Shown here: positions 9,840-12,050 of the stretch, piece by piece
Layout of the letters: each line of letters begins with the position of its first letter
Numbering within the stretch: position 1 is the stretch's first letter
NCBI GenBank assembly: GCA_003971905.1
Contig: RSEE01000040.1
Span: forward strand, 372,001-436,000
Source of the DNA: Moniliella sp. 'wahieum'
Lineage: Eukaryota
Reading direction: 5' to 3'
DNA: 64,000 nt
The notes under the pieces: model-generated
The model's database searches: none
Told to the model about the DNA's origin: nothing
The model's input: the letters and a program-made list of their open reading frames with translations, nothing else
Made by a program: the position numbers and the translations under genes

Positions 9840-12050
9840 GCGCTGAGCCTGAGCGCTGAGCAGTTGAGAGCACTCAGGCGCTCAGGAGGAAGGAGACTGG
9901 TGAGCGCTGAGCCTCACCGCACAAGATAGGATGCGAGAGGCAGGCAGTACGCCAGGGCACACTCGCGAACGGCGGTGAAAGTGGATACGCTGGGTACTAG
10001 CGCACTAGCACAGCCAAGGGGCCAGAGTGATCGAGAAATGAGCAGGTATGCATGGCATGAGACGGGTGACGCGGTGACTCGTGGCGGGGAGTGCGAGAAC
10101 AAATAAGATGACCGATGTCGATGATTAAGATTAAATTTAAAGATTGATGATCGATCGGGATCATCGAGTAGGGTCCAAGAGTGCTGAGTACGTGCTGAGT
10201 ACACTCAGAACTCAGACATCAGACCTACGTATTAATGAGGCCTAGATAGCATCGGGGAAGAGAAGAGGCCAAGGGCAGTGCCACACGGGGGGGTGGCAGT
10301 GCGCCTTCCAGCTTCCCGGTCTGCCTATACTCTCGAGTACAATATACGTGAAAGGAAGACGTGACGTGTGGCGTCACGCGTCACAGGTGACATGGACGCC
10401 TGAGGTTGAGACGCTGAGGGCGTGCGCTTGACGCGTGACGCGTGACGAGTGAGGCTTCAGGCCTCAGGGCCTTGTGCGTCGATGATCGATGATCGATGAT
10501 ATATGACAGTGTCGATTCGATATGTATGAAGTACCAGGCACTAGGGGTAGGATGCTTGGCGCTCGGCGCTCGGCGCTCGATGTCGACGTTAATGCTGTGG
10601 CGCCGTTTGAAATTTCCTTAATTTAACCTGTGACATGTGACCGGTGATCGAAGCGATCGAGTGACCAGTGATCTGAAGCTTCAAGCGACTAGTGACAACG
10701 TGACAACGTGACATGTGTGTGCATGTGACATGTGACATGCAGTTGTGATCATGTGTGACCGGCTGTCTGTAAGCTGCTGCGACCAATCGCGGTGACCGGT
10801 GGCCGGTCCCCTACTATAGCTCCATTTCTCTCGGCCGTACGGCCCATCGACGATAGTCGATAGACGCCAAACGTCACATCATCGATCATCTCTCGTAGAA
10901 GCAAGAAGCAGGTCAACGTTGAACGTGTTGAACGTTATTGAGTGTGAGTTCATCACTGTCACCGACGAAATGCATTTGGACGTTGGAATAGTAGCTGGCA
11001 TTGAAATGAACTGGAGTTGGCAAAGCTTGGATTCTCGGTACTCGGCTCCTTTCCAACTCAGGTGACCCTCACCGGTGGCCCCGGTGTCCAACGTTTACTA
11101 TTCAATGTTCGAAGTTCGATTATCGATGATGGATTGATATGATCGATGATCACGATCACAGGAAATCTGCACAGGATCCGGGGGGGGTGGCTTGACCTAG
11201 TTCCTCGCCATGCACTATACCAGACCATGCATACGTATTCCCTTTGTCACCATGTCGCATATCCCCTGCGCTGAGGCTCAGCGGTCAGCGCTTGACGCTC
11301 GGCGGCCTATTGGCGTCACAGACTAGTCTCCTGTTTGATGTCACGCATGACACCCTATCCATGAGCGTTTCCATGTTCCAGCGCCCAGCATTCCATGCCT
11401 GCTGCTGCTACACGAAGGCACCACCGCTGCAAAACTGATCTAGATCCACACGGGCAAATAGCGTCTACGTACCCTCGGCCTGATCCCAGATCTCAGAGAG
11501 CTTATGCACTTATGCTGCTAAGCTCCAAGCCACAAACGCACAGCCATGGCGTCTGTCATAATGTCGGTGGTACTCCTCAGTACTTCTGTCTGAGTAACTC
11601 AGTTTTAAACGCACGTTAAATTTTAAACGTTAAATGTGTTAAACGTGCACGGCAACTCGTATACTCCGTCACGCGTATGAGTGACGCCTGAGGCTCAGGC
11701 CCAGAGCCCCTCAGTCCGTCCATCCAAATCCGCCAAGAAGAGCAATCCCATTCCCGCCTAGTCCCGCCGCCCGCTGTAGATGTGGGACCGCCCAGGAGAA
11801 GGGTATGGTCGATGGCCCGAGCCCCCCAGACATTTCTCTGGAAAATCCGTGCCACAAATTTGGTGTAATAAGATCTAAATAATATCGGGCAGACGTTTCA
11901 TCAATCATCATTCTCCTCTCTCAGATCAAAGGGTCTTCATCAGCTCCATCTCAATAACGTTCTCGACTGTCACTGTGACATGTAACAGTCACTAGTCACT
12001 AATCATTAATCACTAGAATCACTACTAGCCACATGTGACCGTGACTCCGC
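9840..12050. repeat. Intergenic patch of 7-nt-period palindromic hexamer chains
   Basis: ACGCGT-G-ACGCGT (10431-10443), ATCGAT-G-ATCGAT (10485-10497), ACATGT-G-ACCGGT (10633-10645), ACTAGT-C-ACTAAT-C-ATTAAT (11991-12010). Confidence 0.8.

Follow-up and report, generated by a model that had tools for sequence, protein, structure and literature searches.

T-N-A (N, any base) is the target duplicated by PIF/Harbinger transposons and by the IS1031 group of IS5, and leftovers of two plus two bases are typical of Tc1-type excision, the Tc1/mariner footprint being of the type TA-CA/TG-TA. Palindromic bases are added to broken ends as P nucleotides by off-centre hairpin opening, as in V(D)J recombination and in the hAT and Transib systems, or by the snap-back synthesis of polymerase-theta end joining, and to our knowledge no other way of generating a palindrome of arbitrary sequence during break repair has been described. 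In yeast, topoisomerase II and end joining produce 4-bp duplications from filled-in staggered breaks. Intergenic heptamers are found in bacteria, where the available passages of one report describe the STRR of cyanobacteria and GGGNATC of Xanthomonas and Nostoc (PMC4692102). Here we describe a 64-kb stretch of nuclear DNA of the fungus Moniliella sp. 'wahieum' (contig RSEE01000040.1, positions 372,001 to 436,000; G+C content, 57%), referred to as the window, the intergenic DNA of which contains arrays of self-complementary heptamers that follow one rule: a 4-nt palindrome (pal4, any such palindrome) stands between two copies of T-N-A, mostly with the same N. The corresponding 10-mer, i.e., T-N-A + pal4 + T-N-A, is referred to as TNA-pal4-TNA.

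Like the footprints of cut-and-paste transposons, these units enclose a few bases of two-fold symmetry between short direct copies, here of T-N-A with identical N, and would amount to a small net insertion of fixed size that is tolerated only outside coding DNA. They differ from such footprints in that all 16 palindromes serve as filler instead of one end-derived sequence, in that the arrays reach four units and in that two to three flanking bases are usually matched too. Two added bases are the typical size for P nucleotides, but P nucleotides mirror the adjacent flank, which here is T-N-A itself, and the direct repetition of N argues against their simple form. Fill-in of staggered breaks likewise yields a perfect tandem duplication with a length set by the cut stagger, but under a 7-base stagger centred on T-N-A, asymmetric flanks should be duplicated as readily as symmetric ones. 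The bacterial heptamers share the period of 7, the intergenic position and the variable number of copies, from two to many, but as far as the available passages of PMC4692102 describe them, each genome has one G-rich unit, whereas many self-complementary units occur here, and in a eukaryote. In none of these nearest known systems do 16 or more self-complementary heptamers share a single T-N-A frame. No description of this grammar was found in the full-text literature searched, subscription papers and genome-paper supplements lying outside that search, and the passages available from a survey of short tandem repeats (PMC12699852) mention no heptamers.

Enrichment of the T-N-A-flanked palindromes

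An earlier note on this DNA had pointed to arrays of palindromic hexamers that begin with A, end with T and are separated by a single base; all seven arrays given as examples are present where it had placed them. The statistics reported here cover the 64-kb window and a set of unrelated fungal loci. The 305 A..T palindromic hexamers of the window form 28 pairs that start 7 nt apart, 15 pairs that start 14 nt apart and none at a distance of 6, while the C..G, G..C and T..A classes form 0, 0 and 2 pairs at 7 nt, respectively. The one-base spacing is thereby confirmed, and in the window it is in strong excess over background. In self-identity, 275 six-mers recur at lag 7, compared with 171 at lag 3 and 163 at lag 6, which places lag 7 above even the codon-related lags.

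Exact period-7 arrays of at least two copies number 44, whereas 20 Markov simulations each at order 1, 3 and 5 gave means of 3.9–4.7. The unit is reverse-complement-symmetric, the middle base aside, in 29 of these 44 arrays (0.35–0.6 in the simulations), a symmetry that 10.4% of all heptamers possess. The odd centre of the symmetric arrays is T-N-A in 28 of 29 cases (TCA, 11; TGA, 11; TAA, 3; TTA, 3), the remaining one being CTG. By our own count, period 7 also accounts for 44 of the 117 rows reported by Tandem Repeats Finder (TRF).

TNA-pal4-TNA occurs 95 times in the window, where 8.8 are expected: 76 sites have the same N on both sides (2.9 expected) and 19 have different N (4.7 expected). 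The T..A flank alone is enriched, and the AnT, CnG and GnC versions are at expectation (7 vs. 6.2, 20 vs. 20.2 and 20 vs. 23.6, respectively). All 16 four-base palindromes are used as filler, fairly evenly, which exceeds the ten or more hexamers counted in the earlier note and supports its view that the process does not depend on the palindrome sequence. In a scan of spacers 0–10, only spacer 4 with a palindrome stands out, and palindromes in TNA-to-TNA spacers of 0, 2, 6 and 8 are at expectation. Neither 4-nt palindromes in general (3816 vs. 3807 expected) nor A-pal4-T hexamers that stand without T-N-A on both sides (115 vs. 124 expected) are in excess in the window; the signal therefore belongs to the composite and not to the palindromes or hexamers as such. 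The locally acting character suggested earlier is supported, and the pattern looks event-like: only the composite is enriched, and decay products accompany it.

Anatomy and decay of the units

The middle bases of the 95 sites are GG in 31, CC in 30, AA in 9, TT in 6 and mixed in 19, nine of the mixed ones being complementary G/C pairs; thus, a direct repeat of T-N-A with the same N flanks the filler in 76 of 95 sites. Because the middle bases agree in direction, the arrays are direct repeats of a self-complementary unit. Only 2 of the 29 symmetric arrays are symmetric as wholes, and the possibility that the arrays were written as whole palindromes was ruled out in favor of head-to-tail repeats. 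The odd palindrome noted earlier at the array junctions is indeed there, but the self-complementary unit produces it automatically, so it is not an independent fact. The fold-back synthesis suggested in the same place fails in its simple form because N is repeated directly: it would give TGA...TCA, whereas the middle base is the same in 76 of 95 sites and complementary in 9.

Two T-N-A around a single palindrome, without a second copy of that palindrome, were found in 44 cases where 3.2 are expected, and the converse arrangement, two palindromes around one T-N-A, in 8 where 1.1 are expected. Decay of long arrays would leave both forms about equally often; therefore, T-N-A behaves like the part that is duplicated and the palindrome like the filler. 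The stretches repeated at lag 7 show length peaks at 5–6, 12 and 19–20 bases, and their length modulo 7 is 5 or 6 (i.e., 7n-2 or 7n-1) in 35 of 66 runs, from which it follows that an array consists of n T-N-A, n-1 palindromes and about two matched flank bases. These extra flank bases show no strand asymmetry relative to TGA (23 vs. 23). A more general rule, a 5-base repeat plus two mirrored bases without T-N-A, was rejected, as 15 of 97 cases were left after the 13 T-N-A cases had been dropped, with 12.5% expected by chance.

Degraded forms accompany the intact ones. In addition to the 76 intact units with the same N, there is an excess of about 40 units whose palindrome is broken (72 vs. 31.7) and of about 14 whose N has changed (19 vs. 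4.7), and a stepwise series from CTAG through CTAA to TTAA is seen. Among neighboring units in phase, 11 are identical, 5 carry a different palindrome and 10 are one substitution away from a palindrome. There are also repeats of period 8 and 9, which resemble units lengthened by one or two bases.

Several of these features would be expected if pure microsatellite dynamics were at work, in which heptamers with a self-complementary unit fold back on flaps or nascent strands, evade flap processing as hairpins and are lengthened by slippage, with no need of a special break or enzyme. A flap that has folded into a hairpin is resistant to FEN1, and in rad27 mutants sequences lying between short direct repeats become duplicated. 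The head-to-tail order of the arrays, of which only 2 of 29 are symmetric as wholes, the majority of identical over different palindromic neighbors and the period-8 and period-9 repeats all fit, as does the recurrence of the same filler within 15–100 nt in 8 of 29 pairs against a background of 6.9%. Arrays of three to four units fold as single strands at -6 to -8 kcal/mol with T-N-A in the loop (z down to -3.8), and three paralogous elements with one, two and at least three units, described below, give an indirect hint of copy-number variation. Slippage thus explains array growth. It leaves unexplained the T-N-A centre of 28 of the 29 symmetric arrays, when constructs with other flanks are at expectation, and the preference for period 7, when palindromic arrays of period 6 number 0. 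It also does not account for the non-random phase of the array lengths or for the 44 isolated one-palindrome units: 12-mer minimal units do not fold (-0.5 kcal/mol), and because they are too short to do so, hairpin-driven slippage cannot start them. As the whole explanation, slippage is therefore unlikely.

Two looser observations concern the same words. The 21-mer TCACTAATCATTAATCACTAG is identical at 11996–12016 and 62833–62853 in flanks that are otherwise unrelated, either by convergent stepwise formation of an array or by copying between distant arrays. CCTCAGC occurs six times at an irregular spacing of 9–11 nt at 37952–38012, a looser repeat on the xTSAx' word outside the 7-nt frame.

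Location of the arrays

The arrays of the window, with the Copia-type element that lies among them, are as follows.

9840..12050, strand not assigned: array-rich intergenic region with about 25 TNA-pal4-TNA sites (site scan), of the TGA type (+ strand) at about 9850–11150 and of the TCA and TWA types at about 11600–12020
10429..10447, + strand: TGACGCG x2.7 (ACGCGT hexamers), exact period-7 array, with GCGTCAC x2 at 10371–10384 as its inverted partner
10479..10506, + strand: TCGATGA x3.1 (ATCGAT-G, 10479–10500), running in phase into TGA-TATA-TGA, mixed
10629..10647, + strand: mixed in-phase array TGA-CATG-TGA-CCGG-TGA (ACATGT-G)
10722..10739, + strand: CATGTGA x2.6 (ACATGT-G)
11987..12016, - strand: TCA-CTAG-TCA-CTAA-TCA-TTAA-TCA (ACTAGT-C, 11987–12001)
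25344..25375, + strand: GAGGCCT x2.3 (AGGCCT-G, 25344–25359), then CTGAGCT x2, in a GC-rich, coding-like stretch
31817..31843, + strand: GAACGTT x3.9 (AACGTT-G), the longest pure array, which folds as a single strand at -8.2 kcal/mol with a TGA triloop
37555..37583, - strand: GTCACTA x2.7, in phase into GTCACCG x2.1
38369..38387, + strand: AAACGTT x2.7, a TAA-centred unit
39564..39581, - strand: TCATCGA x2.6, in phase after TTA-ATAT-TCA
43002..43381, + strand: three arrays upstream of the likely RFA3 gene, CATGTGA x2.1 at 43002, TGACGCG x2.7 at 43125–43143 and CATCATG x3.9 at 43355–43381 (array scan, TRF, Pfam)
44336..49408, - strand: Copia-type retrotransposon with a pol frame of 1194 aa, free of interruptions, and long terminal repeats (LTRs) of about 170 bp
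49495..50034, strand not assigned: array cluster between the Copia element and the oxidoreductase gene, with ATGTCAC x2, GTTCAAC x2.7, AGCTTGA x3.7 (AAGCTT-G x3.7, 49683–49708), CGTTAAA x3.4, CCGGTGA x2.3 and TCA-GGCC-TCA
54678..54690, + strand: CTGAGG-C-CTGAGG, within one of three paralogous elements of about 150 nt
61605..61718, - strand: TTACATGTTA, then TCA-CCGG-TCA-CTAG-TCA and CTAGTCA arrays (TRF, GTCACTA x8.9, 78% matches)
62797..62853, - strand: ACTCAGTACTCA twice, then TCA-CTAA-TCA-TTAA-TCA
62959..63003, + strand: TGAGGCC x6.4, imperfect, 77% matches (TRF)
63830..63872, + strand: mixed array of GAACGTT, AAACGTT and TGAACGTTGA (array scan, TRF)

No TNA-pal4-TNA site was found in the Copia element and only one in 12.9 kb of Pfam-supported open reading frames (ORFs), in line with the near-absence from coding sequences and from the Copia interior that had been judged by eye. 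Site density is 2.4–2.9 per kb in noncoding-like and 0.3–0.45 per kb in coding-like DNA, as partitioned by our own crude codon-usage score and not by annotation. The arrays fill 9.8–12.1, 37.4–39.8, 43.0–43.4, 49.4–50.1 and 61.5–64.0 kb and are nearly missing from the noncoding-like DNA at 3.5–8.3 and 58.3–60.8 kb. Strict sites with 7-base margins make up 13–22% of the array-rich intergenic stretches. Wherever gene starts can be read, arrays lie upstream of them, the link to promoters being approximate because it depends on our own rough gene models: three arrays lie no more than about 470 nt from the likely start of RFA3 (replication protein A3), putatively the ATG at 43473 followed by an intron in our rough reading, and the 650 nt or so before the oxidoreductase gene hold seven.

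Were the arrays an artefact of assembly, amplification or base calling, coding DNA and the Copia element should not be spared, and neither 16 units in one strict frame nor graded decay would be expected; we regard such an artefact as scarcely credible.

The direction of T-N-A is locally consistent. The TGA:TCA ratio is 68:31 at 9.8–11.5 kb (38:19 outside the strict sites) and 21:55 at 61.5–62.9 kb, and N is the same in 42–52% of site pairs within 1 kb, compared with 32% at long range. The clustering of the same filler seen within 100 nt does not extend beyond that distance in the window (permutation p = 0.31).

This distribution is also what would be expected of selected promoter elements, i.e., homotypic clusters of palindromic sites for dimeric factors that are held at 7-bp spacing. 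Besides the concentration in intergenic stretches with gene starts and the scarcity at 3.5–8.3 and 58.3–60.8 kb, the same arrays recur at several loci, and an ACGCGT x2.7 array lies about 330–350 nt upstream of the likely RFA3 start. We take ACGCGTNA to be the MluI cell-cycle box of yeast replication genes. The 16 fillers share one T-N-A frame, however, and no protein family is known to recognize palindromes of every kind; nor is the core hexamer enriched without its T-N-A flanks, as true factor sites would be. A transcription-factor reading therefore fails; decayed copies, moreover, are about as common as intact ones. Selected promoter elements are thus quite unlikely to be the source of the arrays, and a single transcription-factor site or a single satellite, against which the earlier note had argued, is not tenable.

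Comparison with other fungi

The phylogenetic position of the window can be read from its Vac8 gene. The best named matches of the Vac8 protein, at 84% identity, are from Ustilaginomycotina (Pseudozyma flocculosa, Ustilago, Violaceomyces, Thecaphora and Exobasidium), and other Vac8 protein records are 96, 89 and 87% identical to the Vac8 exon of the window. The window was compared with 66 loci around the Vac8 genes of other fungi, taken from metagenome contigs and totalling 427 kb. Their identity in the best-matching protein segment ranges from 48 to 92%, and the closest DNA is about 82% identical in the Vac8 protein.

In these loci the pattern is at chance level: the spacer is palindromic in 12 of 302 same-N TNA-N4-TNA sites, where chance gives 1 in 16, compared with 76 of 148 in the window. 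They contain 59 exact 7-mer arrays; the unit is symmetric in 8 and centred on T-N-A in 2. Both of the latter are in one locus (L061) and were rejected as instances of the same pattern, because nothing else in L061 follows it and chance alone would give about 1.5 such arrays among 59. Compared with these loci, the pattern is restricted to the lineage of the window.

Proposed origin of the units

We propose, tentatively and with a probability of about 0.42, that a lineage-specific break-and-repair or transposase-like process adds seven bases at T-N-A and that slippage and decay follow. In the elementary event, a T-N-A in open noncoding DNA, mostly in promoter-containing regions, would be left with a second copy of itself and a 4-base palindrome between the two copies, a net gain of seven bases. 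A staggered break with a 3-base overhang filled in at both ends could produce the target-site-like duplication, and similar processing of both ends by two bases before joining could produce the 2+2 inverted bases, either from leftover end bases or by snap-back or hairpin fill-in; hairpin opening at T-N-A is possible. Because the middle base is repeated directly, a duplicated target is favored over fold-back. Arrays of two to four units would be built up as the new T-N-A is hit again and as replication slips, slippage being helped once at least three units can fold into hairpins with T-N-A loops, and point mutation would erode them. Selection would clear the arrays from coding DNA because the unit length, seven, is not divisible by three and because TGA or TAA is part of the unit. 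What we infer from the anatomy of the units is that a break takes place, that an enzyme is involved and that the events follow this order, and the best reading of the arrays is that they are mutational scars, neither binding sites nor ordinary satellites.

Several findings weigh against this proposal. An inverted-repeat scan, a scan for TNA-flanked inverted repeats and a Pfam search of 65 ORFs revealed no transposon, terminal inverted repeat or transposase beyond the Copia element in the 64-kb window, and 16 fillers cannot be the fixed leftovers of one transposon's ends. Isolated units commonly match two to three further flank bases, where a plain 3-base duplication with a filler predicts none: their lag-7 stretch is 3, 4, 5 and 6 bases long in 5, 7, 15 and 13 cases, respectively. 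These extra bases fit no simple model tried (3+4; 5+2 mirrored; 7-base stagger), and the 2+2 matched-flank class predicted by a 7-base stagger was not seen among the isolated units. As identical neighbors outnumber those with different palindromes, the contribution of copying from existing units is no smaller than that of new events. Independent random hits on T-N-A would also not give an orientation that is consistent over up to about 1 kb. According to the available parts of the mJing paper, TAA/TTA is the target of 67% of the copies of this PIF/Harbinger element, and its excision is precise or messy (deletions of 6–45 bp, insertions of 1–15 bp) with no neat 2+2, so that the PIF-type footprints as published there are irregular, unlike the fixed units of the window.

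A footprint that does give a net gain of seven bases has been described for hAT elements, in which an 8-bp target duplication loses one base. In the available passages on the potato StCDF1.2a and StCDF1.2b alleles, the StCDF1.2b footprint, ...CACTAGTCACTAG..., is a near-tandem heptamer left by a cut-and-paste element; one allele shares the string of the ACTAGTC array and is the only literature match for any of six array strings (PMC12420743). The central base of a hAT footprint is the complement of the lost flank base, whereas the spacer in the window equals the spacer of its neighbor in 76 of 95 sites and, judged by eye, is complementary to the adjacent flank base in 5 of 11 six-plus-one cases, about the chance level. 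Nothing in the hAT model as there described makes the inner hexamer palindromic, and the inverted-repeat scans revealed neither a hAT element nor an 8-bp duplication in the window. Excision of hAT elements is thus a very improbable source of the units.

If the T-N-A-anchored process is a mutational one, the arrays would be an unusually clean and readable signature of one break-and-repair reaction, in which a single enzyme system shapes promoter sequence genome-wide, the rule (T-N-A, +7, any palindrome) points to the geometry of the enzyme and promoters have a natural source of new dimer-binding sites. A bolder version, which we consider rather doubtful, is that a smut-related basidiomycete lineage possesses a previously undescribed DNA-writing activity, independent of target sequence, that keeps inserting palindromised heptamers at T-N-A in open promoter DNA. 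Such an activity could be a domesticated T-N-A-cutting transposase or nuclease combined with a snap-back repair polymerase; if it exists, it builds a sizeable share of the intergenic DNA and, by continually creating palindromic sites such as tandem ACGCGT boxes, gives regulatory evolution new material. Motif-discovery programs will be misled by such arrays, which may also give rise to length differences of 7 bases close to genes in this group of fungi.

Paralogous elements, genes and other repeats of the window

A dispersed element of about 150 nt is present in three copies, all on the + strand, at 37405–37560, 54610–54760 and 60115–60260. Its conserved blocks are GGAACAAGGAAA..., GAGAAAACAGCGGAACTC, CTGAGGAGGGACTGAAGG and CCGTGGCTC, and Rfam returned no match for it. 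In one case the gene for ribosomal protein L6e follows a few hundred bases downstream, and the element may represent either a promoter module used in common or a mobile element of small size. At one spot, with conserved flanks on both sides, the copies hold one (60183–60189), two (54678–54690) and at least three CTGAGG(C) units, the copy of that spot at 37466–37488 showing two or more. These differences are suggestive of 7-base gains, although the spacer differs otherwise too.

Pfam matches on the ORFs identify genes for Vac8 (armadillo repeats), ribosomal protein L6e, a C2H2 zinc-finger protein, an MFS transporter, a ferric reductase, a NOT2/3/5 protein, replication protein A3 and an oxidoreductase. 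The LTRs of the Copia element are identical over a 74-nt block, their differences being confined to the region near the outer ends, and the element appears to have inserted recently into a spacer rich in arrays. A search with its polyprotein among viral contigs found no relative.

Two candidate transposons were examined and rejected: a TAA...TAA interval at 100–3561 holds the host NOT2/3/5 gene, and the right arm of a TGA...TGA interval at 11689–14638 lies within a (GCCTGA)n repeat. This repeat consists of about 20 copies of GCCTGA or GCCTGG at 14591–14737, with periods of 6, 12 and 18, within long ORFs at 14485–15657 (+ strand) and 14413–15315 (- strand). The unit contains CCTGAG, the word that seeds many of the heptamer arrays.

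Searches of the window with Rfam and ARAGORN revealed nothing that bears on the arrays. A tRNA gene at 5702–5800 (+ strand) scores 49.3 bits with Rfam and was missed by ARAGORN; at 99 nt against a model of 71 positions, it apparently bears an intron. On its 3' side lie CCTGTAAC x2.6 at 5817 and ACTGACG x5 at 5879.

The motif GGGGGGTGG occurs nine times where 1.25 copies are expected, and none of 100 shuffles reached nine. Eight of the nine copies are on the + strand (10288, 11182, 37885, 45693, 46376, 50982, 57614 and 63589) and one is on the - strand (21413), and several of them lie within array-rich intergenic regions.

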